DNA of 63,120 bases, counting the filler, from Folioceros fuciformis (Eukaryota), in the NCBI GenBank assembly GCA_049999805.1. It is 9 parts of 9 records of this genome, joined end to end, with 100 filler letters (N's around TTAATTAATTAA, not from the genome) between each part and the next. Parts side by side here need not be neighbours in the genome. Positions count along the whole stretch, not along the records: positions 4,948 to 32,325 come from JBNGIO010001886.1; 8 more parts are not named here. One strand, written 5' to 3'. Shown piece by piece: positions 606-29,446 of the stretch; the first letter of the stretch is position 1; each line of letters opens with the position of its first letter. Under the pieces are notes generated by a model. That model ran no database searches. It had not been told where the DNA came from and worked only from the letters and a program-made list of their open reading frames with translations. The translations under genes were made by a program, and so were the position numbers.

Positions 606-3600
606 ATGCAAGTACATGGCGGACCCATTGTTTTCAAGCGCTGTTTCCTGGCTGCCATTCTAATTGCCTCCCTTGCAACATCATCTGCACAGCCTGGTAT
701 GCACCACCCAAGTGCGAGTGCCTTTGATTTCTTGAAGCAGGAAACGAGCGGCGCTGACATGTTGGTTACACATGTACCACTACCACTCAGGTGCAAATTT
801 TGTAAGCGTCGACTGTGGGGGCAGTAGTGAGTTCACCAGCGCTGAGGGCATTGCCTGGAAACCGGACAGCGTGACCAACTTCGATCACTCTCCTGGGCTT
901 CCAGCTAGGATAGTATCCAACGTTTCTTCCATTCCCCGGGAGTTGCAGACTCTGCAGTACTTCCCAGATTCGGTTTCCTCGGTGAAAAGCTGCTACGTGA
1001 TTCCTGTGGAGTCTCCAAAATCGACCTACCTGTTTCGGGCAGGATTCCTCTACGCCAATTATGATCAGCTAAACAGGCCCCCTTCATTTCTCATCAGCCT
1101 GGATTACGATTACTGGGCATTTGTGCAGCTCAAGGCTGGGAATGACCCCGTGTATTATGAGGTCATCACAGCCATTTCTTCGGATCAGCTCACGTTTTGT
1201 TTGATCAGGGTGGATAATTCCGCTACTCCCCTGCTGAACACCCTTGAGCTGCGCCCTCTTCCTTATCCCGCCTATTCAGCTCCATCTTCAGGTAATGTAA
1301 CCATGTCAACCATGTTATCAACTCATTGCGGTGTGTACTAATCTCAAGCCTTGAAATGTCTGTCCAGGTTCAGCTGCTTACGTTGGGGGTGCTCCCATGT
1401 TGGATCGCTACTACATCTCAGTTCTACGCGTGAATTTTGGAGGGCCTTTCATCAGGTGGGAATTGCTGGGACGGGGAAGTCTGAGTACATTGTTCTCACT
1501 GTGGCACAGAGTGACGCCCGATCTCACCTGTGCCCCTGTCCCTTCGGTGCCGTGTGCAGATTTCCCGACGATGAATATGACCGCTTCTGGTCAGATTATC
1601 GCACTGTCCTCCCTGAGACTGGCAACCTTGAGGTCCTCAGCACTTTCCAATCGGTGAACACCACCGCAGCCACGAGGGACTTGCCTCCAGAGAGGGTGAT
1701 GCAAACTGCGGTATCTGGTACCTCGTTTTCCTTCTCTTTGACTCTGACGCCTCAACTGCTCGCTGGCTCCATGCTTCTCAACAAGTCGAAGTTAGCGGAC
1801 GCCTTCCCAAGTTTTTACTTTACAGAAATTGCCGATGTCAGCGAGGATCAAGATAGAATTGTCAGATTCGCCTGCTCTAATTTGCTGGAGGAGAACCTAG
1901 TGGACTTGAAATATCCTTTCTTGGCCCACGAGGCCTTCAGTTGGAATCAATTCGTAGCCTTCGACAAAAACACCACCTGTACATTTACGAGAGCCCCAAC
2001 TAGCACCTTGGATCCCCTCCTCAATGCTATTGACTTCTACACTGTACGGGATAAACTTCTTTCGGGGACTTCTGCGGTTGATGGTATAAACTACTCTTCC
2101 CTAGAGCTTCTTGACACGGCTTTGCCTTGTGCTTTGGTGGGCTCGGATAGCTGTTGACTACAATGCTATTTGCTACACAGTTCAAGCTTTGGACGAGGTG
2201 AAAGCACATTTAAGCATACAGCATCTCTGGTTTGGGGACCCCTGTCTGCCTGTGCCTTGGGATGCTGTCCTATGTGCTACCGACAGTACTTACACCATTC
2301 GAGTTACATCTTTGTATGCCTCCTGTCCCATGTGTGAAAGTTTGCAAACTCTGCTTCCAGGATCTCATTCTAACCTTCGTCACTCTTCTTGCGATGTCAG
2401 AAATATTTCCGGCATGAACTTGTCAGGTTCAATACCCTCAAGCATTTTGTCCATGACATCGTTGACACGATTGTAAGTTGTGATGTTTAGTGAGGGAGAG
2501 TTTCAGAAACTGTCAACAAACCAACGGGTAAGACCACTATGATGTGCATTTCGTTATATGAATGACTCCAACCCGTGTTTTGCAGGGACATTTCGAACAA
2601 TAGCATCAGCGGATCATTCCCTGGATGGCTGGGGACCCAGCTGCCCAATCTAGAATACCTGTATGTACTGTTACGCTTTTCTCCAAACGTAGCATGGTCG
2701 GTTGTGCCGAGTTAGCTTTTCTTGATGCTTTGCTTTTGGGCATGCAGGGATGTATCAAACAATCGGATTGGAGGTAGCTTTCCAGAGTCCCTAGTAACCA
2801 AGCTTGGCAAAAATTTCAGGTGTAGACACATACATAACTCTTTTTCTGAAGGAGCTCCGCGTCACAGCAAGATGCATTTGATCATCTTCAAAGTGCCATC
2901 AGTGCATGCCTGCGAGCAACCTTCACCAATTTTTCTAACCCTTGTGCAGTTCAAGTGTTGCAGGTACAGCGGAAATGCAGGATTGTGCAGTTCGAACGGC
3001 CAAGGTTGTAACAATTCTCATACTGGGCGGATGTTGCTGGGTGCAATTATTGGCGGAGCTTGCGCAGTTGCTATAATCTCGATTCCTGTCATCTACTTTG
3101 CCTTCTTTCTGGCACATTCGTCAAAGAACGGTGAGTACCCATATCCATCGCCATGACACCTTATCGGAGATTCCTTGTCTGGTGGGGCAGAAATTGAAAC
3201 CAGCATGGTTTTGCAGGCTTATTTGACAAGCAATATCGTCAGCTTCAATCACGACTCAAGACCAGCGGAGCACGGACCAGGCCATTTTCACTCTTTCGAA
3301 TCAGGCAGATTACGAAAGGCTTCAAAACGAAGATTGGTGAAGGAGGCTTCGGCCCAGTTTTCTATGGCCGGTTGAAGGATGGTCAGGAAGTCGCCGTGAA
3401 GGTACTATCTGCGAAGTCTCGTCAAGGAAGACAAGAGTTCTACAATGAGGCAAGTCATGATGTCGATGTTTCGGAGAGGGGACAGGACAGTGACATGCTT
3501 TGTCCTGTGCTGCTAGCAAAAGGGGAACACGTCTCTCAAACTGACGGGGCACCTGTGCAGATCGAGTTGCTGTCTGTGGTCCATCATAAGTACCTCGTTT

Positions 3601-4847
3601 GCTTGCTCGGTTACTGCCAATCCTGGAAACAACAAATTCTGGTCTACGAGTACATGAAAGGGGGAGACCTTTGCTCTCGACTTCATGGTAAAGCTGGGAT
3701 TTGTTCACGTTTCTTCCAGGATAGATTATGTGTCTTCCCTCGTTCTAGACTTTATCCTGAATTCTTGTCCAGGAAAAATGGCTTCAGCGAATCCCTTAAC
3801 CTGGATGGAAAGAATGAGCATCATCCTGGAGGTCGCGGAAGGTAAAAAAGAAACAGCTCCCCTCCTGCCTGTGAACATCTGCGGCTCCGGCAATAAGAAA
3901 ACAGTTCACCATTCCTGCGTTGTTTGAGCTTGCCCTTACCAATTATTCACAGGTCTCGAGTACCTGCATCATGGTTGTAGTCCAGCTATCATCCACCGAG
4001 ATGTCAAGAGCAAAAACATTTTGCTGACCGAGAGAATGACATCTAAGGTAGCAGACTTCGGGCTATCTAGATTGTTCACGCTGGAGGAGGAAGGTGCCAC
4101 GCATGTTACCACCGTTGTGAAAGGAACCACTGGCTACCTTGATCCCGAGTAAGCATAGACTGCCTCAAGACCTGTCTTCCAGCAGTGAATCACCAGGTAG
4201 CTCACGACCTCGCCTGCAGATACTACATCACCGAGAAACTCACGGAGAAGAGCGACGTGTACGGGTATGGCGTGCTACTCATGGAGACCATCACAGGACG
4301 AGCTGTTGTGGACCACAGCCAACCCTCGGAACATGTTTTCGTCGTAGATTGGGTAACAAAGGAACCCTAGCACGCCCCCTCACGTTTTGCGAGGATCGGT
4401 GATTTGAACCAGTGTCCGTGTCTGACCAGCTATGGCATTTGTATGCATTAACAGGTGCGCAGTGTATGGGCAGCAGACGACCTGGTCCAACTGGCGGACG
4501 TGAATTTGGCTGGCGACTACGATGCCACCACCTTCTCCGGGCTGGTGAATTTATCGCTGTGGTGTGTGGAGCGCAGCAGTGTTCACAGACCGCCTATGAC
4601 TGAGGTCCTGAAAGAACTGCGTCGGCTGGGCCTGGAAAGAGCCCTCACCAGCTCGTCCATCAAGGAGCAAGTGAATATGGATCATGACGGCTTCATCTAC
4701 GGGTCCGACTCGGAAAGCCTGGGGACAACCACATCTATGAGCTTCAACAGCAACACATCCAGTTGCCCTCGCCCTGGGACAAGTGGTCCCGATTCAGGCA
4801 CACACAAGAATCATGGTGTGGCCCCGAATTCCGACCACTCCAACATC
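606..4847 (+). CDS. Malectin-like domain LRR receptor-like kinase (LRR-I/IOS1-type), paralog 1; multi-exon, runs into the contig end without a stop
   Basis: Signal peptide ([22 protein letters not shown]). Malectin-like exons ([45 protein letters not shown]), [12 protein letters not shown], three LRR exons and a TM helix. Kinase motifs [38 protein letters not shown]. Short introns. Confidence 0.93.
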
Positions 4848-4947
4848 NNNNNNNNNNNNNNNNNNNNNNNNNNNNNNNNNNNNNNNNNNNNTTAATTAAT
4901 TAANNNNNNNNNNNNNNNNNNNNNNNNNNNNNNNNNNNNNNNNNNNN
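4848..4947. other. Artificial contig linker (N-run, TTAATTAATTAA, N-run)
   Basis: 100-nt spacer with stops in all six frames; the same spacer recurs eight times. Confidence 0.97.
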
Positions 4948-5083
4948 GTACCTTGGATACCTCCCAACAAGCGTCTGGCAGTTTGTTACGGATCGTCAGA
5001 TACCCATGGCCCTTCTGCTGCATCTGTCTGCAGCCAACAGAAGTGAGGAAGAGGAAGCATCATGACCCCCTCAGAGCTTAGCA

Positions 5084-8000
5084 ATGGTGCAGCTTTCCAT
5101 CCTCGCGCCGCTGCTTCTGCTCTTCCTCCTCATCCACCGTCGTGCCGAAGCTCTCGTCACTGCTCGAGGTGACGTCTTCTTTCTCCACGGTGCACCGTTT
5201 CCCCTCCTCTGCCTCTCAACTCTTGTTTGCCTCCTCTTACAGGCTTTGTAAGCATCAACTGCGGAGGCACCGCGGATTTCCTGGATCCTGAAGGAGTGTA
5301 CTGGAGGACCGATGCTCCAATCAAGGTCCGCCGCGCGGATGGATTGGCTGCCAACATCACCACCATTCCAGGGACGAGACAGGAGTTGCAGTCACTCCGA
5401 TATTTCCCGACCTCCACCTCTCCGGCCAAGAGTTGCTACATTGTGGCAGCGCCTCCTCCTCCCGACACTACGGATCCTCGTGCAACAGCCTACCTGGTCC
5501 GCCTGGGATTTCTCTACGCCAACTACGACAACCTGAACAGCCCACCATCCTTTTCTGTCAGCCTGGACCGGGACCCCTGGGCCCTTGTGCAGCTGGAGTC
5601 TGGTAACGACCCTCTCTACATTGAGACCTTCTCTTTTCTCCAAACCCCCACCACTGCAATCTGTTTCATCAGGCTCAAGGACACCCAAGCACCCCTTGTC
5701 AACTCCATCGAGCTTCGAGCTCTCCCATACGCATGGTACCCAGACCTTTACGGCACTCAGCTCCTCCACCTGCACATGCGAGTCAACTTTGGAGGACCAT
5801 CCTTGAGGTAACCCAGCCCCCGGGCGTGGCATACCGCTACCTGTCTTTCAACGATCGTGAGCTGCATTGAGCTCACACCATGTCTGTTTGCTGTGCAGAT
5901 TTCCTGTGGACCAATATGACCGAAAGTGGTCTAACTACTTAGATCTTTTCCCAAATCTGATAGACGTGCCGGTTGTGCAAACTTCTGCTTTCGTGGATGA
6001 CGGTGGCAATCCACATCCCCCACCTGAACAAGTGATGACCACGTCGATCTCAAGTCCTCATTTCTCCTTTAGCTTCTCGTCGGTTCCAAGCTTTCTGGTG
6101 AACGTAAATGCAACGTACAGAAGCTACCCTATCTTTTACTTTGTAGATTACTCATCGTCAGGGCAAGCAGGTTCAGAAATCAGGCAATTCAGGATGAAAT
6201 GCTCCAACCTGTTCGACCCCATAGTTATGAATCTAAGCTCAGTTCCGCCGTTAAGCTCTTTGGCCATAGACGTGCCTGCTGTCATCGGTTCATACGTTCA
6301 GGTCACTCCCCTCGTATCTCAGTGTGATCTATACCAAGATTTTCAGTCCATCAATATGTTGAATCCCACAGTCAGTGCTGCTGAACTTCTTCTACTCCAG
6401 GACAAAACTTTTGCTATCACTTCCAGCATTGATGGTATGATGTCAATTTTGTTATGTTGGATGCATTGTTTGCAATTCTGAGGTTGATCTTCTGATTCTT
6501 CAAGCGACTTTCTTGTGTGCAGTTTCTGCATTGAGTGGATTAAGCAAAGAATTAAATTTTGAACGACTATGGCTTGGGGACCCTTGTTTACCTGCACCTT
6601 GGCAAGCCCTAGTATGTGTTGCAATATCATCCACCAATTTCGAAGTTACCATCCTGTAAGTGTTTGAAGAAAATGGTGAGCTCAGCTTAAGTTTTGGCTT
6701 AAAACTCTAAATGCTAAACATATTTTAACTTAATAACTTTTTTTGTTAACATGTGATAGAGATCTATCAGGAATGAATCTGAGTGGACCCATACCATCAA
6801 ATATCTCATTACTGCCTGCTTTAACTTCACTGTGAGTTTACGTAACTCATGTTCATAATCTGTTGTCTTGTTGTTGCACTAGTTTAGTTTACAAAGTGTC
6901 TATTTTAAATATTTTTTAGAAATCTATCCAACCACAAACTAAACTTTAATTTAAATGTTTTCTCAGGAATCTATCCAACAATCATTTTAAGGGTTCTCTA
7001 CCAAATTGGTTGAACAACTTGACTCAACTTACTTCTTTGTAAGTATATATATTTTAATTTAATATTTTTATAAAGATATTTTGAAGCTTTTTCTTTCTTT
7101 TTAATATGTCTCCATATCCTTTTAAATGCATTGGTTCAGAGATGTCTCCAATAATAATCTCCAGGGCACAATTCCGCCTTCATTAATTACCAAGTTGGGT
7201 AATAATTTTAGGTAGGTTATATTTTTAATAAATTTATAATCTAATTTAAAAAGAACATACTATGATATTCTAATCATCTTCTTGGCATTGACGTAGGTAC
7301 ACTGGGAATGATGGTTTAATTTACAAACCGCACAAAACGTTCAACAAATTGATACTAATAATTGCTACATTTTCATTCCTTGCTCTGATAATTTGTATTA
7401 TACTAGTTTTCTTGGGATATAAGGTGATCCTATCGAACTCTTCAACAAATGGTACGTCTTTCTTGGAAGGGACATTTGGAATTTAGTAATTACTGTTGCA
7501 AGGACAAAGAATAGTCCTAGCCTGACGTAAATGTGTGCAGGCCTTTTTGACAAGGAATACAGAGAGCTTCAAAGAAGGTTACAAAGTCAGGGAGCAAAAG
7601 CTCAACCCTTGTCACTTGCGAAAATCAAGCGCGCCACAAACAATTTCGAGAAGAAAATAGGCGAAGGTGGTTTTGGACCAGTCTATCATGGCACACTAGA
7701 AGACGGACAAGAAGTTGCAGTGAAGGTTTTGTCAACAAAATCTAGTCAAGGGCGACGTGAATTCTGCAACGAGGCAAGAGTATTGGGTGCTGCATAGAAA
7801 AACTCCTGCAGAAGAGGTACCCTGTGCAGAGAATGGTCTTTTTGACGACACTTTGTCCGGCAGGTTGAGCTGTTATCTACAGTCCATCACAGAAATCTGG
7901 TCTCCCTACTTGGGTATTGCCAAGTCTTTGGAGACCAGATTCTTGTTTACGAGTACATGAAAGGAGGGGATGTCTATGACAGGCTTCACGGTAGGCACGG

Positions 8001-11781: not shown

Positions 11782-13503
11782 CTAGCTATCTGACGACCTG
11801 ACTGAATCTTTGGGAAGTTGCAAGCTCACTATATCCTCACGGGGGAGGCCGCCCCCAAACAACTCTACTTCATTTTGGTCAGCACCCGGATCCTCCTGCG
11901 CTCTCCTAGCCTCGCTCTCCTCCACGGGAAGCAGGTAAGTCACCTCTCTGTCTGTGCGGAATGCCAGATACCCGATTCCGGCCAAGTAGACAAGAATTCC
12001 AGAGAAGCCAATAATCCCCATGAAAGCCTTCCAGGCAACATGGATTCCGAGATGAATGAGCCAGCCGACGAAAGCCGTGGACAGGTAGTAGATGTTGACC
12101 GTCATGATCGCAAATCCAATGACCCAGGTTGTGACCGCAATCATCTTAGAGTTCTTGTGAGGCCCCATCTTGACTGCACTGCTGGTGAACTTGAGCAGCG
12201 GTAGCAGCGCAAAGGGCAGCTCGAAGGACAAAATCATGGAGGCTATGATGATGAGCCTTCCAGCACCCTTGGAGCCCGAGATGATAGCCACAATCAAACT
12301 GGGCACGATGGCCACACACCTGGTCAACAAATTCCGCAGCCAGGGTTTGATCCGCAGGTTGAGAAACCCCTGCATCACAAACTGGCCCGCATAGGTGCCA
12401 GTGATGGTAGAGCTCTGGCCCGACGCCAGCAGGGCAATAGCGAAGAGAGTGGAGCTCCACCTCCCCAACACATTCCTGAGCAAAAAGGAAGCCCTGTTGA
12501 GATCCAGATCGTCGCAGTGGCTCCGGTTCTCCTCCGACAAGCCCTGGCTGCCGCACACCGCCCCGGACACGGAGATGACAGACACGTTGATCAAAAAGGC
12601 GAGGAAGAGAGCAAATGCGCTCTCCAGCATGTAGTACCGGCAGCCGTCCTTGATCCCTCGGAGGGAGCGGGGGATTTTCCTGGACAGCACCAGCGCGGAG
12701 TGGAGGAAGAGGTTGTGCGGCATGACCATGGCCCCGAGCAGCGAGATGGCGAGCCCCGTAGCCCCGCTGCCCTGCAGCCGGGGCACGAACATGCCCTTCA
12801 GCACCTCCCCGGGTGCCGGCTTAGCGTAGCCCAGCTCCACGAAGAAACAGCCCGCCATGGTGAAGACGAGCAAGGCGATGAGGATCTCCAGCTTGCGCAC
12901 CCCATACTGCTGCAGCGCGAGCAGGATGAGCGTGCTGAGCCCCGTGAGCAGCACCCCCGCCCACACCGGGATGCTGAAGAGCATGTTGAGCCCGTACGCC
13001 GTGCCGATCACCTCAGGGATGTCGGAAGCCACAATGGCCACCTCCGCCACAACCCAAAGAGCGTAGTTCACCCGCCTCGGGTACTCGGCCCGACAATGCT
13101 CCGCCAGGTGCTTCCCCGTCACCACCCCCAGGTTGGCCGCCAGCATCTGGATGATGAGCGCGGAGCAGGACGCCACCAGGATCACCCACAGCAACTCGTA
13201 CTGGTACTGAGCTCCCGACTGCAGGTCGCTCTCGAAATTCCCCGGGTCGATGTAGGCGATGGCCACCAGGAAGCCCGGCCCCAGGTACGCCAGGAACTGC
13301 TTCCATCCCCTCTTCTCCGGCACGTGCACCAGGCTCTTGCCCTCCTGCTCCTCGTCCCCCGCCACTGGCCCTCCTGCCACCGTGCTGCTGCTGCTCCTCT
13401 GCGGCTGCTGCTGGTTTTGCGGATGGAGAGGGTTTGTGCCGGAGAAATGCGGCGGGGACACGCTGCTGCTGCCGCCGCCGCTGCGTCCCCCAAACGGAGC
13501 CAT
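11782..13503 (-). CDS. NRAMP: NRAMP divalent metal (Mn/Fe) transporter, NRAMP1/6-like, single exon
   Basis: Uninterrupted ORF from ATG 13503 (MAPFGG). Signature motifs [33 protein letters not shown] and [19 protein letters not shown]; many TM segments. Confidence 0.96.
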
Positions 13504-13629
13504 AACCGATCCTCGATCTGTCACGCCTTCTTCTGCCTCTCCTTCGCCTCCGATCGGCTGCCCCTGAATCGGGCAGAGATGGAGGAAGCGCAAGAGAGGG
13601 TCCGCGAACGCCGAGAGTGCGTGCCGCTT

Positions 13630-15220: not shown

Positions 15221-20131
<4,911 letters not shown>

Positions 20132-20612
20132 CAAGGGGTCATACGCTTGCTCGATTCCAGGGCCTCTGGGGCACATTGCTCGCCATTGTCCTTGCTGTGT
20201 TGTCGTTCGTAACTAAAAACGATCTGTTTGCAAGCCGTTTGCCTTGATTGTACTGTACTCCTCTCCGTGTGCTTGCGACTCGTAGCAATCCTAAACACTT
20301 TTCTCACCATCCATTTCTACAGCCTGTAATGCACGGAGAGGAGAGGAGTTTTGCCACAAAAAAACAGGCATGGCAATATTTTTTGTGCGCACAGTATTAT
20401 GACGTACCAACAGAACAGAGTCCCCGGCACTTCTACTGCCAAACCTCTTACCCCAGAAATCACAGTCCATGGCTGAAGGCGAGTAGCCTCCGTCGGGGCG
20501 GAGGGAGGGGATGGGCTTCGTAGCCTCAAACCCTCTGAAGCAACAGCCCGCTTGACGTCCAAGCCACATCTGGTTCCTGTGGCCATCGAATTCAGCAAGG
20601 AAGTTGCAGCGC

Positions 20613-20842
20613 AGGGTAGCTAGACTCAAACCCAAACGTGAGGGTTAATGTGGCCATCGTAAGGCGAGTTCGCAACGCGTGCGCGTTAGTGGAGAGTTGA
20701 AGTGCGTTCCACAAATGGTTTCCATGGCACGGGGTAGCGAGACTCAAACCCAAACCTGAGGGTTAGTGTGGCCAGAGGCATGCGAGTTCGCAGCGCGTGC
20801 GCGTTACTGGAGAGTTGAAGCGTGTTCCACAAATGGTTTGCA
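20613..20842. repeat. Imperfect tandem duplication, about 118-bp unit x2, just upstream of the Dabb gene
   Basis: gggtagc.agactcaaacccaaac.tgagggtta.tgtggcca...tggagagttgaag...ttccacaaatggttt occurs at about 20613 and 20731. Confidence 0.85.
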
Positions 20843-20892
20843 CAAAAAAGTGCTGATCGGAGTTTCGCGCAGCAACTGCACTGCTGGAATCC

Positions 20893-22566
20893 ATGGCTAG
20901 CACAGGGTGGAAGCGGATAGTGACCTTGTTCATGGTGTCCGCTGCACTGGTTGCCGCGATCCAAGCAAGTGATGAACTTGAAAGGAGGTGCGCTTTTTCT
21001 CACAAGCCTCATATAGCGTGATCAGAATGCTGTCTTTCCGGGTGGATCGATTGTGACACAAGGCTCCGTTGATGACGAGCTGTCAGGGTGGTGATGACTG
21101 GGTAGCAGGAACGTGGTGGATCATGTAGTGTGCTTCCAGATTCCTCACCTTTCCACCGAGCAGGAACACGCGCTGTTGCAGGCCATGTGGGAGTTGCAGT
21201 TCAAGTGCACTGAAGCTCCTGATGGCCTCTCCATCTCTTCCCTCTCCGCAGGTGAGCCTCGTGATCACGTCCAAGCTTGTGATTGCAGCCGGAGCTTCTC
21301 TGCGAAACTTGTGCTTTGTGGTTATGCCCGGACGCTTGTCGGCAGGACAGGCCGTCTTGTCAGTACCGAGACCAGTCGCAACTGCACCTACGCTCTGTTT
21401 GTGAGGTTTCCATCTTGGGAAGACCTATACACCTACTGGAGGCATCCTTGCAAAACTGAGGTTGCCGACAAGTACATCGTCCCTTTCTTCGATGTGAGGA
21501 GTTGCCAATGTGCCCTTGCCCTGTCCATGGACTTGATAGCTCAAATTCCTTTTGTTCACTATGTTCTTTAGATCTCTTACACCTGTGAAGCCTTGTCCTG
21601 CAGGGCGAGGTCGACGTAGACTACGAGGCCGAAGTTCCCAACACCATCGCTGCTGTTGAACGGAAAGGCCCGGTATGATCTCATCTGCCCGCCGTTATCT
21701 TGATCTAAGAAGTCTCTGGAAATGATTGCGGTGCAACGCGTCATACTTGTGTTGCAAACGTGAAACGTGAAACTGGCAGAGTTTCGATTCCGGGGTGGAG
21801 CATGTGGTGCACGTCCTGTTGAAGGACAGCACTGAAGTGGAAGCTGTCTTACAAAAATTGGACACCCTAGCCACCGAGCTGGGCCCCGATCTCATCCTCC
21901 AGCAAACGCGGGGTACGCTGTTTGCCACTTCGCACAATCTTGCGTACTTTTTCAAAGGCAAGTGCCGTGTCCGTGGCGATCGGTTTGAGTTCTGACACCT
22001 GTGAAATGAACGCACTGCCAATCGCAGGCTTCAATTTGTTCCCAGTGGAATTCGAGCAGCGAAGTAAGAATCCGCATTTTCAAGTCGGTGTCGTTGCGCG
22101 TGTAGCATCAGGTAACATGATTCTGCCAGCTTTCTCGTCCGAAACGGAACATTCTATTCCCAACACGTGTCTGACCGATCTGAACCCGTCCGTGGCGAGG
22201 AAAATGCAGAGGAGGTTGCGGAAATGTACGACAAGCATCCCATGTTCTTAAGTGTAAGTAAATTACTGTGTACTGTTCTGGCCACTGGTTTGCTTGCAAG
22301 ACCTGGCGCCCCCGTATGAGGCGTGACAATCGCGTTCCTGTGCTCACAGATTTTGGAGAAGACCACGACATTCATGTCATACACCTACATCCCCTTTGTC
22401 CCCGCTGCCACAAGCTACATCGCCTCGTCCTAGAAGCTGTGCGTGTGTCCGGGTTTGCAAACTGGTGAGAGACTGTTGGAAACCGTTGCCAACTTTATAT
22501 GCTACATACATGCCTGGCTCTATGTGGCTGGGAGTAGGTAATAACGTCGGCTTGGTTGTGTGGTAA
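20893..22566 (+). CDS. Stress-responsive dimeric A/B-barrel (Dabb) double-domain protein, multi-exon; 3' end uncertain
   Basis: Exons VVDHVVCFQ..EQEHALLQAMWELQF, NCTYALFVRFPSWEDLYTYWRHP, VDVDYEAEV..RKG and FDSGVEHVV resemble, as recalled, the plant two-Dabb-domain family. Exon 1 (20893-20987) splices in phase to 21109. Confidence 0.75.
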
Positions 22567-23309
22567 AGCCGCTATTTGCTCTGCCCATGAGTAGAAATTG
22601 AAAAGAGGTAGTGGTGCAAGTGTAAGAGAAGCATCCTATTTTCTAAAATTGGAAAGAGGTAGTGGTGCCATGTGTAGGAGAAGCATCCCATTTTCTGAAA
22701 TGTCCAGTCACTGTATGTGTCTAACTTGTCCTATAAGATATAATCCTTAAGGCCTTGCAATGTTGACATCTTCCACATAGTGTACCCCTTGGGAGTGTTT
22801 ATACGCTGTAGGGAGTGTTATCCGCCATAAAGCGGCCTTGAATGTTGAGTAGGATTGGAGATCTGCAATGATAGCCGCCACGGCTCCATGGCACCTGTCC
22901 GAGGTATACAACAGGAAGAATCGGGGAGACTTGTGTACGAGGTCTGCAGCAGAGTGAGCCAGCGATATCGTGTGCTCAAGTGTCACCGTGCAACCTACAA
23001 GGTACGGGTTCCCGTGCTTCTTCGTGCGGGCACAGGGGAACGTGGCGGAACCGGAAAGCTGGCTTGTTTTGGAACCGAGCACATGCGATCGATTCGGTCT
23101 TGGCGGACTCACAGAATTCTTCTCCTTCACGGGGCCGGTAGTGCTCCCGGACGGGAGGTCGGCAAATACTTGGGTCTATATTTTCTGTGGACAGGTGTTT
23201 TTTGAAAGCCAGTGTTGGACGGGAGGTCAAGCGAATCTGCGTCTTGAAGGGAACTCTGTGTGTGTGAGAAACCAAGCTATCGCCGCGGGGGCTGCAAGGT
23301 GCGAGAGCC

Positions 23310-24285
23310 ATGGCAGACACAGGAAGATAGGCGGCGGGCGGGGCCGGCCTGGAAGTGAGCGTGGAAGAGAGCACGCTGAGGATCGGGGCAGTGACGGTGT
23401 ACTTTAACCGCACTATCCGCATTCCTGACCATGGTAGAACTTACCCCTTGCCGCCGAACCTGGGCGCGTTCCCCCTGCGGAGAGTGGCAGATTACGCGGG
23501 CAAGGTCCCGGAGAAATGGCGGCAGCACTGCGGGGTGTTCCTGCCCATCTTCCAGCGAGGGGCCACGTGACTTGGGTTCAGCGGGCGACATTGGCGGCCC
23601 AATGCTCTTAAGGTGGGCGTGGGCAAGGTGTGCGCCATCACGAGCACTCCATGGTCGGAGGAGCTGCATGCGGATCCGCAGGACTACGTGGTGGTGCCGG
23701 ACCAGCCCTGGTTGGACGGCATCAACAACGGGGACGGCACCATCCGGCAGTTCGTGACGATGCCCTTGGGGTTGGGATACAGCGTGGAGGACCAGGTGAC
23801 GGGGGAGGAGACTCACGGGAGGGTTGCAGCTCTGCGTCTTCGATGCCGTGCCGGGGAGGTTCCCGGACGAGCTGCCGCTGGGTCGACGCCGCCCGGGCGT
23901 CATATCCACCGACGGACCGTCCTCGGATGTGGAGATGGCCGTGGCTGTGGGGGGCAAGATGAAGCAGGACGTCTACGAGGATGACTACGGCCTGGACACC
24001 TGGGACCAGAAGACGAGAGGGCGGATTTTCGTGCATCTCTGTAACTCTAAAATGTGGACAAGGGTCACCGGGGAGGCTCCCCCAGAGTCGCCTCTGTCAG
24101 CGGCCACGTGTGCGCAACATGGGTACCCTTGGTTTGATCTGTACAATGAGGGCAGGGCAGCGGTCTCCGGATCGGATTTGCTGCAGGGGCTGAAGTCTCA
24201 GAAGGAGTTGGATAAAGAGAAGGGGCTGAAGTCTGAGAAGGAGTTGGATAAAGAGAAGGGGCTTCCGCCGCAGCAGAACGACTAG
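23310..24285 (+). pseudogene. Intronless GC-rich pseudogene of an uncharacterised bacterial/fungal protein family
   Basis: Reconstructed protein FNRTIRIPDHGRTYPLPPNLGAFPL..VFLPIFQR..QDYVVVPDQPWLDGINNGDGTIRQFVTMPLGLGYSVEDQVTGEE..GGLQL..GGKMKQDVYED..RIFVHLCNS..GYPWFDLYNE. Broken by TAG 23328, TGA 23568 and a +1 frameshift at about 23820. Confidence 0.8.
24185..24263 (+). repeat. 36-bp in-frame tandem repeat (GLKSxKELDKEK x2) at the pseudogene 3' end
   Basis: aggggctgaagtct.agaaggagttggataaagaga at 24185 and 24221. Confidence 0.9.
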
Positions 24286-25635
24286 TCCGTCCCTGTTCCT
24301 CACGTTGTCCAGTACCATAAAGTAGAGGATAGTGCCTGGTAGGGGGCGACGTGTTGTGGGCTTGTTGGCTGCAACGCAATTCCGCTCTACTCTTCTTGTT
24401 CCCGGAGTAGGCTACGAAACGAGCAGGTGTGGACGTTAGTCTCCTTTCCTTCGCAGACATTTCCCTCAGTTTAGCTGTTGAGAAGGTTGCAAATCTTGCA
24501 TTTTCTGGTTTCTTCGTGCTGAAATGGCAGATCATGCGGGTTTCACAGCCAGCCCATGTTGTGTTGTTTTTTGTTGTGGTGCGATTGGGGAAGAAGAGCG
24601 GTTCTCGAACAAATGAGCACTCACTTGCCGTCGGTGAACAAGCGATGACTTGGCGGTATGGTTTTCGGACCGTTCTTAATACTTCACGGTAGATTCTACT
24701 TTCCTCACCTTCCGTCACCGGAGGATGCATGAGAGCAGCCATGCCGCGGCCCCTTAGCTGGCCTTGTGAGCGTACAAACCAACAGCGTAAGCTAATTCTG
24801 GATCGCCATGCAAACCCGCGGTCAAAGCATTAGGAGCGCACTGTTCGCGGGCTCCCGTCCTGCTGACAGCGAGAGCGAGAGCGTTGAGGCTTATCCCCTA
24901 ACAGCCTAACCCCTATCAGACACCGGAAAGCCGTGTACACGTGGCTCAGGGAGAAGGAAACCGTGAACACCAATCGGCTGAGCCCAAGCCATGACCTCCA
25001 CTTTCCCGCTGGCTGCTAGGAACGCTGGAACTCCTCAGGGCCGCGGAAGGTAAAACGTGTCGGCCTGCTTCCGCCAGCCGCCATTGCCTTTGCTCGTAAC
25101 ACTGCGGCCTCGGAACTGGAGAGTGCATTTTTGGGTGCAGCGGCGAGTGGTCACTTTCTTTGTGTCATGTATGTGGAGCATCCAGTTACTGTAGACAGCT
25201 GTCAGCACTAGCGCTGTGGCCGGAAGGGTTATACTCTTCCACGAGCCCGTGCCTGCCAGGGCTGTCCTCAGCACAAAGACTTGTCGTTCTACAACTGAGG
25301 CTGCACCGATTCGATGAGGGCTGTTGGCCATAATCATTCCCACTAACGCGCCTCTCTACTCACAAACTTTAAATCTGGATTCAGGGTTTCTTTAATTCAG
25401 ACTGAACACAGTGTGGACTTGATGTCCTTGGGATGGCTACTGAATGAGACCATATGATTGCAGTCCTGTGAAGGGAAGGGTACTAGCCTTGTTACCTGTT
25501 GAAGGCATCAGCTTGAGCCGACGGTTCCCATCTTTCTGTCTGATGATGCCTGTTTTGGTTTGCACTTTGAGTCACCTGGCAGCTCATCCAACACTGAGGG
25601 AGACCTCACCGCATTAGACCATCGTGCTGCCGTAA

Positions 25636-25770
25636 CTCCTCAAAGCTCACACTGGGCCACGCGAGGTGTGCGTTCAATTGGCGAATCCGACCAAGGATCA
25701 TGCGCGCTGGCAGAGGCCCGAGGAAGTGCAGACTGACCATCCTGCCTACAAGATGGACATGCTGCATCGA
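25636..25770 (+). pseudogene. Isolated fragment of a GH9 endo-1,4-beta-glucanase
   Basis: LLKAHTGPREVCVQLANPTKDHARWQRPEEVQTDHPAYKMD resembles the GH9 motif LLKA....LxVQVGD...DH.CWERPEDM.T.R..YKID. No other GH9 exons were found. Confidence 0.6.
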
Positions 25771-26341
25771 ACTGTTGAAACATCGAAAGCAGGCATGCCA
25801 AAGTTCTACAGCAAGCATATAGATGTTACGCAGTTAGGCAGAGAGAGGGGCTTGAAAGTGTGGACAGTCGTCAATAAAATTAGTAGTAGTTGTGTTCAAG
25901 GCACGATTCTCAGTAACGAATGCCGCCACGGTGCATCCCTACCTTGGTACGCAAGATAAAGGCATTGTTGTTTGCCAGTGACAATGGTGGTGTTGTGCAT
26001 CGAGCCAACAAGTAGCGAATAGAAAGGAGAGACTTCTGGCCCTTTAGAAACCTGTCGAGTTACACGTGTGAACACAGCTATCCCCTTCTCGTCAAGCAAT
26101 CTAAGTTGAGCGCAAGCATAGAGATCGTGCAACTAGGCTGCCCGACAGCGAAGGGGTCTCTAATGACAACTTCAGCACGATATGTTTTCTGTAAGGTTCA
26201 AGCAGGACATTTGCACATGCATACTCCGAGAGCTTCCACTTCAGCAGTGGGCTGGAGGCGGAAATTTCCAGCGTTGAGCGCCGCGTTAATCATCCACTCG
26301 AAATCCGCCTCCATGGTGAAGCTTGCGTCGGTTTGCGCACT

Positions 26342-26587
26342 TCACTTGCAGTCGCACTTGTTGGCATCGTCGTTGCACTTGCTGCAGTCGGGGTCACCCC
26401 CGGCCACAACCGCCAGGACCAAGATCATGCTACTGCAAACACGTACACCAGCACAAAAATTGATGGACTGTCTCAAGCAAACGCTTCCAAATCATCATGG
26501 TCAAGACATTAAAGAAAGGAAAGCCATTTTCCAGCCCAGCAACTCTCGGCGTGAGCAGTGCAGCACGTACACATTTCCGTAGGCCAT
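26342..26587 (-). CDS. Tiny two-exon Cys-rich ORF (35 aa), metallothionein-like or small secreted peptide; may be decayed
   Basis: Exon 1 26587-26571, GT..AG intron 26570-26433, exon 2 26432-26342. They splice in phase to MAYGNVSMILVLAVVAGGDPDCSKCNDDANKCDCK*. Confidence 0.5.
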
Positions 26588-27159
26588 GAAGCTGCTGCGG
26601 GTCCGAGAAGCAAGAGATCGACGAGCAAGAAGTCGGAGAGAGGCAAACTTTAAGGCGGTGATGGCGAGTATGGAAACTGCCGAGCGGCTCCTTTATTCGC
26701 AGGGAGGGAGGCCTGAAATCGGTGGGCCTCTGGCCACTGGGTCCCGGTATCTACAGTGGGGCTTTCCGATTTGGTTTTCGCCGTCCGGCTGGTTGTCCCA
26801 AGTTGCAAGTTGCGGCAACCGCCAGTACGTTGAGCGTCGTACCAGTGCCAGAGGTGGTCCGATGCCAGAGATTGGCTCCAGGACCACATGAGGGGCTGGG
26901 ATTCCACAGCGGCAGCCCTTGACTGGTCTTAGGTTGGGTTCGGTTGCCATGGGCATTCATGAATACATTTTAGTTTCTCGTAATTTATCACTTGGTCGAG
27001 AGTTATAGTTAAAATAACATTTTCATTTTTCATAAATAATCACTCATATTCTTGGCTAAGAGTCATAGTCAAAGCAATATTTCATTTCTTGTTCTTTCTT
27101 TGAGCTCTCCAAAAGTGGGGTTGAGGGGTTAAGCTATCTAAATGCAGCGTCCGGTCTCC

Positions 27160-27306
27160 TTCAGTTATCACTCCCGCCCTTCGATTCAGTTATCACTCCC
27201 GCCCTTCGATACTTGGGGAATGTTGCCTCTTCGTAGAGACTTGAAGTCTTGGGTGTTCTTCGGGAATGTTGCCTCCTCGTAAAGACTTGAAGTCTTGGGT
27301 GTTCTT
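27160..27306. repeat. Two short tandem duplications (about 25 bp x2 and about 45 bp x2)
   Basis: ttcagttatcactcccgcccttcga x2; gggaatgttgcctc.tcgta.agacttgaagtcttgggtgttctt x2. Confidence 0.8.
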
Positions 27307-27466
27307 GTAGGACTTCCTGATTCTATTCATACTTATGTGGATGCAGCCGTAGATGAATGAGATTTGGCTCATATCATGGACCTCTCTCAAATTAGTGACC
27401 TTTATATTGCATTTTGTATTCTTTCATCATGTTTTGCATAGCGATTAGGTTACCTCACTAAAACTA

Positions 27467-27757
27467 TTGTGCCTTTTTTTATTAAGTCTCAAGAAGTTCA
27501 ATAATCTAGTTATGCAAGCTCTGAGGGACATCATAGGTCTTGGCACCTTCAAGTGTGTCATCGATGATTTGGCTCGGCAGCAAGCTTCCTTATTGATCGC
27601 TTTTGGAGGTGTGGGCCTTTTAGGCATAGAGGCCTCTGCTTCAATTTCCTTTCTTAGTAGCCAAGGTCCCATCTAACACATTGTCCCATCGGGAGGCACT
27701 GCATTGCTAGCCATGAAACAGTTCAAGATAGCATGTTCTCAATGGCTAGGGAATGTG
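27467..27757 (+). mobile_element. Internally deleted fragment of a CRE/REL-type non-LTR retrotransposon
   Basis: LARQQASLLIAFGGVGL..ASISFLSS (post-RT QASLP..GGLGL motif) is followed by HLTHCPIGRHCIASHETVQDSMFSMARE (H..C..GG....HD.VRD zinc-knuckle motif). Confidence 0.55.
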
Positions 27758-28395
27758 TTATGGATAATAATAATAATAATACATTACTATTTTACATTGG
27801 GTTATACCTAATATGAGGGTAAACCCTAAAGTCAGTTATTAGATTCATTTGCCAAGTAACCCCAAGGTACTATGGAAGGATGCCTCGCAAGAATTCTTGC
27901 ACGCAATCCTGGCCAGAGACTGAAGGGAGAAGGGCGCACCAATCATTTGAGTAAGAATTTGAAAGGAGGTACTTCAAGAAGGTTGTATCCGCTGCAGACA
28001 GGGCCTATTTCTTAAGCCCCTTCCTCAATTCTTTGGCCTCAATATCAAACAGCCATAACAGTGTGCAACTTTTGATAAACCTGAACCCAAAGAGAAGGGA
28101 GTTCAGGCCCATCGGCCTTCGTGTATTAAATACATGAAGAAATCGAAGCCTTATCCTGAGACTTTTACAAAGCATGAAGTCATTCTCAATTCTATTCTAA
28201 ATATCAAGAGCACAGTGTCAGAGTACACTACCAGAATTGACAACGTGCTATCCAGGCAGGAGAGGCTTGAGAGTCTTTGCATTTCAGACCTGATGACCAT
28301 GGCAAAACAGGAGTAGGAAATTATTGAACTCGGGAGAAACTTGCTCACTGACTAAAGCCTCCTTATAATTTTTGCCAAGACTGCTCGCAGGCACG

Positions 28396-29446
28396 ATGTC
28401 GGGTGCTGATGCTGACACATTGTCAGACAAGCTGCAAGACAAGGATAGACTCACCCTGAATAATTACGATGCCTGGAGCTTCAGGGTGCACTGCATCCTA
28501 GAAGAAAAACTTCTCATGGATGTTGTAGACGGTACTATACCTAAGAAGATTGCTGGACTGCTCTCTGGGTTAACAACACCAGGAGGCACTGTTATAAATT
28601 GGAACCTCAAGGATAAATTAGAGTGGGCGTTCAAGGATAGGAAGACACGTACCATACTTGTGTCTTGTGTCTCACATGAGATGATTTCTCATATAAAATT
28701 GACTCAGTCCTCAAACAAAGTTTGGTCACTTTTATCTAAAACCTACGAGTCAAAAGACATGATGACCGAGGTAGCTACAATGCTACACTTCCAAAATATC
28801 CGTATGAAGGAGACCGACGCCGTTGAGAGTCATGTTGCTAGGTTTAGGGCTGCTAGAGCCAAACTAGCATCTTACGGAGTCATCTTATCTGAGTCTAGGG
28901 CTATTGTACACTTGCTAGCCTCACTCCCTCCTAGTTATAAGCAATTTAGTTCCACTCAGCAAGCAACAACAATTGTAGTTCTTGCCACTGCCACTCAACT
29001 TGCATCATCAAACCTCACTGTTCAGAAAGTTGTTGGAGCCCTCCTACAGGCTGAAGCCAACAGAAAACACATGCAAAAGGGAGCATCCTCTAGTTCTTAC
29101 AAGTAGAGTGATACTGCCCTTTATTCTGGCAGAGGTCGAGGTAGAGGAAAGGGACGTGGACGTGGTGGTACAGGGGGCTTTGGCAGAGGACGTAGTCAGT
29201 CTTCGCAGCCCAATTCAAATTCCTCTTCATCAACCAAGCCTGGTAATTGCAATTATTGCAACAAACTAGAACTCTGGATTAAAGACCGCAGTAAGAGGAT
29301 TAGAGATGAAGTAGCAAAAGGTAAGCACACATCAGAGTCAAATACAACCAAAGCTAGTACATTAGGCTTACTAGTGGCGTGTCTTACCTCATTGAAGAAA
29401 AGGTGTCATAAGTGGTTTCTTGATAGTGGGGCCTCGAATCACTTGT
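28396..29446 (+). mobile_element. Degenerate Ty1/Copia gag-protease region
   Basis: RLTLNNYDAWSFRV gag N-terminus, UBN2-like core, stop at 29104, RGG-rich linker, decayed knuckle CNYCNKLELWIKDR, protease WFLDSGASNHL. Confidence 0.85.

Follow-up and report, generated by a model that had tools for sequence, protein, structure and literature searches.

Introduction

Microbial genes in non-seed plants are well documented, and the available portions of two reviews (PMC12448838; PMC12513842) treat genes that non-seed land plants acquired from microbes; one dead copy, taken alone, adds little. What, then, might be learned from a gene of microbial type that a plant seems to have gained and afterward lost? 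In this paper, we take up one candidate for such a history: a relic gene lying in a 63,120-nucleotide stretch, filler included, of the Folioceros fuciformis assembly GCA_049999805.1 (the whole stretch is called the window here, and all positions count along it). The proteins nearest to the relic in form belong to a bacterial family of about 320–350 amino acids (P0156/P0157 and L081 among them) that carries the label “hypothetical protein” and whose length and order of motifs the relic shares. These motifs, common to the bacterial members and the relic, run RTLRIPD..YPLPP.LG.FP, QREAMWL, QDY.V.P.QPWLDGI, IRQFVAMPLG.GYTVE.Q.TGEE, GGxQL, HG.PWFDLYDE and, at the C terminus, ..DG.W.

The account that we favor, and hold to be probable, is that a mostly bacterial, uncharacterized family is represented here by one dead copy in a single exon, the remains of a bacterial gene that was gained and later lost. 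A bacterial gene would have entered a eukaryotic ancestor of F. fuciformis, been kept for a time and then been released from constraint, perhaps 0.08 neutral substitutions per site ago, a span of millions, not hundreds of millions, of years. What is left would now be non-coding only, either as a piece of a long 3′ untranslated region (UTR) or as part of an overlapping read-through transcript. An earlier look at this DNA, which we call the sequence-only reading, had proposed a horizontally acquired microbial gene, recently pseudogenized, at 23310–24285.

The Relic and Its Breaks

Our reading of 22800–24800, together with a stop-to-stop frame listing, places the start of the relic at an ATG whose frame soon meets a TAG and then a TGA (Table 1); the next in-frame ATG after the first of these stops, at 23760, lies far beyond the conserved N-terminal motifs. 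The column of the TGA is Trp (W81) in 46/46 relatives (alignment A1). At the frameshift, the relic reads cac ggg A ggg ttg cag where the relatives have H-G-G-L-Q, and homology resumes in frame +1; when four relatives are used as tblastn queries, the relic is the sole match in the window, appearing in frame 3 and then in frame 1, with the switch at the frameshift. Beyond the TAG at 24283, the frame reads SVPVPHVVQYHKVEDSAW and a stop up to 24342, and it aligns with the family tail (“..QQDDSxVxVP...DGxW”) to its Trp-stop end. In all, the frame has three stops and a single +1 insertion, identical in RNA and DNA contigs. The sequence-only reading had named the TAG at 23328, the TGA at 23568 where Trp is expected and the extra base at about 23820, all of which are real; its “only three” lesions overlooked the TAG at 24283 and the 36-bp duplication, and the end that it gave, 24285, is that premature stop, past which the homologous tail continues.

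Table 1. Positions in the window of the relic, its lesions and the transcribed ground upstream and around it
Feature	Position	Strand	Details
Whole relic of bacterial-type gene	23310..24342	+	About 340 codons, intron-free, two frames; profile match, alignment A2, tblastn
In-frame TAG	23328..23330	+	Codon 7, unconserved N-terminal stretch; frame reading
In-frame TGA	23568..23570	+	At the invariant Trp of QREAMWL; alignments A1, A2
One extra base (A), +1 shift	23820..23820	+	Between two GGG codons; placement ambiguous within 23817-23821
In-frame tandem duplication	24185..24256	+	2 x 36 bp, 97% identity; +12 residues (GLKSxKELDKEK), none in relatives
Premature TAG	24283..24285	+	Ser in relatives; removes last 19 codons (24286-24342)
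Unspliced 3.5-kb block of X1 RNA contig	22350..25848	+	Whole relic inside, sense orientation
3' exons of upstream spliced plant gene (A/B-barrel, Dabb-like)	21464..22433	+	RNA joints, one open frame across joined exons
Upstream-gene exon ends	..21493, 21604-21671, 21779-21911, 22027-22108, 22207-22253, 22350-	+	Stop codon 22431-22433

How much of the old protein can still be recognized? Read through with an X placed at each break, the relic gives 325 residues, of which residues 13–322 match positions 3–304 of the family profile (328 positions, built from alignment A1) at 422.6 bits, a score far beyond chance; intact relatives score 436–496 bits on the same profile. It keeps 39 of the 45 columns that are conserved at ≥95% and has lost the consensus at 6, a number of changes (6 or more) that just 5 of 318 other rows reach, their median being 0 and their mean 0.69. 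With its stops and its +1 insertion, the relic can no longer encode the protein; the 12-codon duplication and the replacement of 6/45 conserved positions are further changes. No long terminal repeat (LTR), terminal inverted repeat, target-site duplication or flanking direct repeat was found around the locus (19000–29000), and no A-run follows 24342. A sigma-70 promoter scan gave 0 sites, a result that is irrelevant for plant DNA, and Rfam and tRNA scans of the whole window gave no matches.

The stops themselves offer a rough clock. Random substitutions in the codons of the relic make a stop in 3.89% of cases (P 0.0389). At that rate, the three stops correspond to about 77 substitutions (0.076 per site, or about 0.08 neutral changes, with a Poisson range of 0.016–0.22). 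That figure predicts changes in about 15% of codons, and 13% is observed at the conserved columns. All of this fits a moderately young pseudogene, with a coding-type guanine-plus-cytosine (GC) content at third codon positions (GC3) that is still distinct from the flanks (relic GC 0.60–0.64 and GC3 0.77–0.81; flanks GC 0.50–0.53). “Recently” pseudogenized, as the sequence-only reading put it, thus holds roughly, with the breadth of range that an estimate from three stops must carry.

Chromosomal Context and Transcription

Does the relic truly lie in the genome of the plant, and is it still read? Three public sequencing runs hold the interval 22700–24900: X1 (2017; its own study and sample) with 100% of the sampled words, and X2 and X3 (2025; a different study and sample, from which the assembly itself may derive) with 98% and 80%. 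Runs X4–X8 hold next to none of the sampled words and are no evidence. Contigs from the runs were compared with the window over 21500–26000. Record 1 of X1 is a single 4655-nt contig with 0 differences, 0 gaps and 0 other letters (mean word depth 84.5), and it carries four GT..AG joints, at 21671/21779, 21911/22027, 22108/22207 and 22253/22350; the DNA runs X2 and X3 have 0 differences over the same ground and no joints. No holder is recorded as RNA, and X1 is counted as such solely by these joints, which, being absent from the DNA runs, mark it as spliced RNA of a plus-strand gene.

The gene in question encodes an A/B-barrel protein of Dabb-like type, the Dabb match being a weak one (E 5.6e-5; 24.2 bits, below the cut-off of 25). 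Its joined exons form one open frame that ends at 22431–22433, a loose end of the X1 contig maps to 21464–21493, and the relic begins 877 nt past the stop codon. An AATAAA lies at 25873–25878, shortly beyond the end of the X1 contig at 25848. Because spliced plant exons are joined to the relic in one RNA contig, contamination and chimeric assembly are ruled out, and because RNA and DNA from two samples have identical letters, the stops and the extra base are real. DNA contig pieces of the second sample (21866–23616, 23605–24432 and 24426–26000) bridge both flanks, a point that the sequence-only reading had proposed to check with reads. The relic is part of the nuclear DNA of the plant, and sense transcripts of it are still made. 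Its surroundings are those of a plant: the window holds three malectin-like receptor-kinase genes, an Nramp gene, a VIN3-like gene and a copia gag (Pfam), the nearest matches to the Nramp being fern, Ginkgo and angiosperm proteins (70–74% identity), which points to a land plant, most simply a non-seed one; there are no bacterial neighbor genes around the relic. An intronless pseudogene on a contig with spliced plant genes, as first described, is what the single-exon relic and the spliced RNA contig bear out.

Two repeats lie close by. A 52-bp tandem repeat (22595–22701, plus strand; 2.1 copies, 89% matches) lies within the transcribed block, after the Dabb stop codon and before the relic, and a 116-nt unit (20609–20842, plus strand) occurs in two tandem copies, 87% identical, just 5′ of the putative start of the Dabb-like gene near 20894.

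The Family and Its Intact Members

To what family did this gene belong? With the N-terminal 170 residues as query, a phmmer search of 1.84 billion cluster representatives returned 2,433 matches at E ≤ 1e-3 (a count of clusters at 50% identity; best 1.1e-60), 1,364 at 1e-10 and 321 at 1e-30. A word-indexed search gave 346 matches from 901 candidates, the best over the N-terminal half being P0153 (68%) and P0155 (69%). Among its best 120, the organism-named rows are bacteria in 5/5 cases (Thermodesulfobacteriota, Pyrinomonadaceae, Polyangiales, Solirubrobacteraceae and Deltaproteobacteria); a second family search has, among its best 120, five organism-named matches that are bacterial and one more from EukProt. 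Neither search has a plant-labeled relative within its 120 best matches, which is weak evidence. In bacterial and archaeal contigs sampled at one genome per species, at least 573 of 603 matched stretches encode relatives, from at least 10 phyla, and the best 80 of these stretches come from Planctomycetota, Cyanobacteriota, Actinomycetota, Myxococcota, Chloroflexota, Gemmatimonadota, Acidobacteriota, Verrucomicrobiota, Nitrospirota and Proteobacteria. The near relative P0157 lies on a metagenome contig of 70–79% GC, adjoining genes for peptide deformylase (def) and a PriA-like protein (priA), and is for these reasons taken as bacterial.

No model in Pfam, NCBIfam or PADLOC matches the relic or the core of its intact relatives, the only hit being a chance one to WTF (E 0.067; Pfam, three pieces of the relic). 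The family is overwhelmingly bacterial, large and uncharacterized, and the motifs that the sequence-only reading gave as those of an uncharacterized family in bacteria and fungi do indeed mark a family, one with named members in many bacterial phyla.

Domain fusions were sought in 75 family representatives. In P0119, a ubiquitin domain (PF00240) is inserted in the central loop at residues 232–303, which agrees with the statement in the sequence-only reading that some fungal members carry a ubiquitin-like insert; the fungal side of that claim has, as a lead only, an Ascomycota cluster in the Atlas named “Ubiquitin-like domain-containing” (score 0.78–0.84). P0095 combines ubiquitin and RING, P0005 has UBA and P0032 has ZZ. 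Elsewhere, the family core is fused to Trypsin_2, FGE-sulfatase, protein kinase, TPR, Sel1, RuvB-like AAA and MshEN. The last of these, cyclic-di-GMP-binding by its Pfam name, lies within the central loop of P0022, P0024 and P0103 and hints at control by a nucleotide second messenger in some bacteria. In three Chromatiales-type genomes (L048, L054 and L056), the family gene is flanked by an HTH_31 regulator and a TraG_N conjugation gene (Pfam was run on L048, and the other two share its layout of open reading frames), which suggests carriage on integrative conjugative elements.

An AlphaFold2 model made from alignment A1 (first row P0156) is confident (pLDDT 88.5, pTM 0.87) and beta-rich, and it has a disordered loop at residues 193–221, the very site of the ubiquitin and MshEN inserts in other members; the intact protein would, on this model, be two-lobed and rich in beta structure, with a central loop that varies. 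The plan of the sequence-only reading to predict a structure and run Foldseek yielded the model and no relative: Foldseek against the PDB gave 0 matches at E ≤ 0.001 (best 5.7e-2). A sequence-profile search of the PDB gave 0 matches at E ≤ 1, and a wide VIA-align comparison reached at best Z 4.3, with generic Ig-like sandwiches, which does not establish a new fold.

Genomic neighbors (98 immediate neighbors in 54 bacterial loci) offer some hints of function. A peptidase gene is an immediate neighbor in 10/54 loci. Trypsin_2 is the neighbor in 5 of the 54, two of them with EAD5 or EAD1; Astacin and/or PPC is found in 5/54, and papain in one, a locus that also has Astacin/PPC. HTH_31 neighbors occur in 4/54 and an extracytoplasmic-function-type sigma region 2 in 3/54. 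EADs are described, in the available part of a study of multicellular bacteria, as adaptor domains of conflict systems (PMC7159879), and it is from this that we venture a tentative guess, one we would not press: the intact protein may be a protein-binding adaptor, linked in bacteria to peptidases and conflict systems and in eukaryotes to domains of the ubiquitin system.

Origin of the Relic

Where did the gene come from? Judged from sequence comparison, its origin is probably microbial, and since the family is overwhelmingly bacterial, a bacterial origin would be the simplest account. The closest full-length match (57–58%) is the gene on the 70–79% GC contig with def and priA, and the members with ubiquitin, UBA, ZZ or RING are more distant (0.42–0.53 identity). 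In a FastTree phylogeny of 319 rows, the relic stands beside P0171 (support 86), and a set of 18 rows at 95* holds it together with one named bacterium, a metagenome-assembled genome of Actinomycetota. Its end branch is long, 0.68 in FastTree against a median of 0.32 and 1.25 in IQ-TREE against a median of 0.57, which, like the changes at conserved columns, points to relaxed constraint. Its highest identity to anything is 0.588 (at most 59%); the median nearest-neighbor identity of 60 random rows is 0.696, and 18% of those also fall below 0.60. By these measures, the relic is an orphan on a long branch.

A bacterial gene gained and lost must, however, be weighed against a set of observations that do not favor it, and we gather them here. 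Under the C20 mixture model of IQ-TREE (64 rows), the relic falls in a polytomy, in no starred set, and no donor is named. Its identity is flat, at 0.56–0.59, to P0219, P0155, P0154, P0156, L081, P0153, P0171 and others. P0171 has low-complexity inserts and finds its best relative in P0273, a protein from a EukProt transcriptome, and both look eukaryotic; a tree constrained to unite the relic with P0171 and P0273 lies 46.9 log-likelihood units above a quick free search (p-AU 0.966), a grouping that was chosen after the tree had been seen and is, therefore, to be read as allowed, not demonstrated. Several near relatives with proline-rich N-terminal extensions, unlabeled, also look eukaryotic. 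An older eukaryotic history, whether by old transfer or by vertical descent, is possible. Base composition does not help: we dropped GC3 as a mark of foreign origin, for the intronless host Nramp (11782–13629, minus strand; GC 0.61, GC3 0.80) equals the relic, and family genes in 80 bacterial loci range in GC3 from 0.29 to 0.97. Because the host Nramp has the same GC3, GC richness is not diagnostic of origin, and “conspicuously GC-rich,” in the words of the sequence-only reading, is true against the flanks and not against this host gene. Nor does a contig suffice to show a single molecule that spans both the upstream gene and the relic, the depth of 84.5 being one figure for the whole contig. 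The hints of function, finally, come from fusions and from neighbors in a minority of loci, with no structural or sequence match to characterized proteins.

Since the grouping with P0171 and P0273 is allowed, the transfer may predate the species F. fuciformis. Transfer “into this lineage,” as first proposed, is thus more than the polytomy, the long branch and the want of any relative above 59% can bear.

What else might the relic be? The rival that survives best, which we nonetheless think unlikely, is that it is a dead duplicate, made by DNA copying or as a retrocopy, of an intact and expressed paralogue, so that the plant lineage would still have a working gene. The 422.6-bit match and a GC3 well above the composition of the flanks do speak for a fairly recent loss of constraint, and intronless genes of high GC3, such as Nramp, are present in the genome; however, tblastn finds no second copy within the 63-kb window, the relic has around it neither the A-run nor the direct repeats of a copied gene, and plant-labeled relatives are missing from the 120 best matches of both family searches.

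It is less probable again, in our judgment, that the family is old in eukaryotes, whether by vertical inheritance or by a single gain well before land plants, and later disappeared from most plants, with the relic as its last, decaying remnant. The ubiquitin, RING, UBA and ZZ fusions, the Ascomycota cluster and the EukProt protein P0273 would all be at home in such a history, and the clade of relic, P0171 and P0273 is the best tree found, in keeping with the FastTree support of 86 beside P0171. P0171 and P0273 are, however, no nearer to the relic (0.56–0.57) than bacterial rows are (0.57–0.59), and the ubiquitin-type members are the farthest from it. Among rare shared residues, the relic has 1 in common with the P0171/P0273 pair against 0–3 for control pairs, so that no special partner stands out; the group is, moreover, post hoc, and long branches attract.

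To a bolder idea we would give about as little credence: that there is an undescribed family in non-seed plants, a bacterial adaptor module with a fold that has no solved relative, gained early in the green or land-plant line, of which intact, expressed copies survive in F. fuciformis or its relatives, while the dead copy serves as a 3.4-kb 3′ UTR controlling the stability of a stress-type A/B-barrel mRNA.

A fungal donor in place of a bacterial one is unlikely, and distinctly more so than any of the foregoing. Fungal members of the family exist, and contact between plants and fungi is intimate in non-seed plants; set against this, members with eukaryote-type partner domains are 42–53% identical to the relic, compared with 57–59% for bacterial-type rows, and the central loop of the relic is short and free of a ubiquitin insert.

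That the gene is functional, with breaks that come from sequencing error, RNA editing or recoding, is scarcely credible for all that the region is transcribed: at every break, the letters are identical in RNA and DNA contigs from two separate studies, with 0 gaps; the disabling lesions number four, independent of one another and of two kinds, and come on top of 6/45 changed conserved columns; and U-to-C editing would turn the TGA into an Arg codon, not a Trp codon. Bacterial contamination or a chimeric assembly, which an intronless, GC-rich gene of bacterial type might bring to mind, can be set aside, for one RNA contig links spliced plant exons to the relic, a second sample’s DNA contigs bridge both its flanks, and a broken frame is not expected in a live contaminant.

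Other Features of the Window

The Nramp gene is a 615-codon, intron-free frame, 70–74% identical to plant proteins of the Nramp1/6 type. Plant Nramp genes usually have many introns, and this one may be a retrogene or may come from a lineage with intron loss. About 4 kb downstream of the relic, a copia-type gag frame (28369–29106, plus strand; Retrotran_gag_2, E 4.1e-25) is followed by a GC-poor region and probably belongs to an LTR retrotransposon. Three genes with malectin-like domains, at least one with a kinase domain (3198–3845), occupy 736–6481 and 33096–34178 (plus strand) and suggest a small receptor-kinase cluster; in the first, the domain is divided between two adjacent frames, 736–1341 and 1342–2157. 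Finally, an unbroken frame of 1,185 codons (43514–47071, minus strand) lies in a low-GC block (GC 0.34, GC3 0.29), with an AAA ATPase domain at residues 797–940 as its sole Pfam match. It is odd in a genome whose other genes are GC-rich and spliced, and a mobile element or a foreign source could account for it.

Comparison with Known Systems

What does this one relic add? It is a clean, contamination-proof case in which an acquisition can be lost again, and it bears on the share of transfers that are transient; we take it as a likely, if modest, example of gene transfer ending in gene death. Intact plant copies, should there be any, would make a new plant gene family. The family itself, very large (2,433 clusters), unmodeled and with a confidently predicted fold that has no solved relative, is a target for curation and structure work. 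Searches of the literature on horizontal gene transfer in plants and on pseudogenes turned up background and no mention of the family, which has no name by which to search.

The relic departs from the bacterial members, to which it is 57–59% identical over about 295 columns, in its four breaks, its 12-residue duplication, its 6/45 changed columns and its place on a plant chromosome. The eukaryote-type members (P0119, P0095, P0005, P0032 and the Ascomycota cluster) have the same core, with inserts at the central loop; unlike them, the relic has a short loop and no ubiquitin, UBA, ZZ or RING part, and its identity to them is 42–53%. For NTP-dependent conflict systems of multicellular bacteria, as set out in the available part of Kaur et al. 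2020 (PMC7159879), the likeness lies in Trypsin_2 neighbors with EAD1/EAD5, in the fusions of the family to Trypsin_2, FGE-sulfatase, TPR, kinase and AAA, and in taxa rich in filamentous and social bacteria. The family differs from the systems described there in that its core matches none of their Pfam models, EAD-bearing neighbors occur in 2/54 loci and peptidases are neighbors in 10/54.

Closest in kind, perhaps, are the acquired plant genes treated in the available portions of the two reviews (PMC12448838; PMC12513842), from which the relic differs as a dead copy from an uncharacterized family, one for which the trees name no donor. Like them, it is intronless, belongs to a microbial family, sits among plant genes and is expressed.

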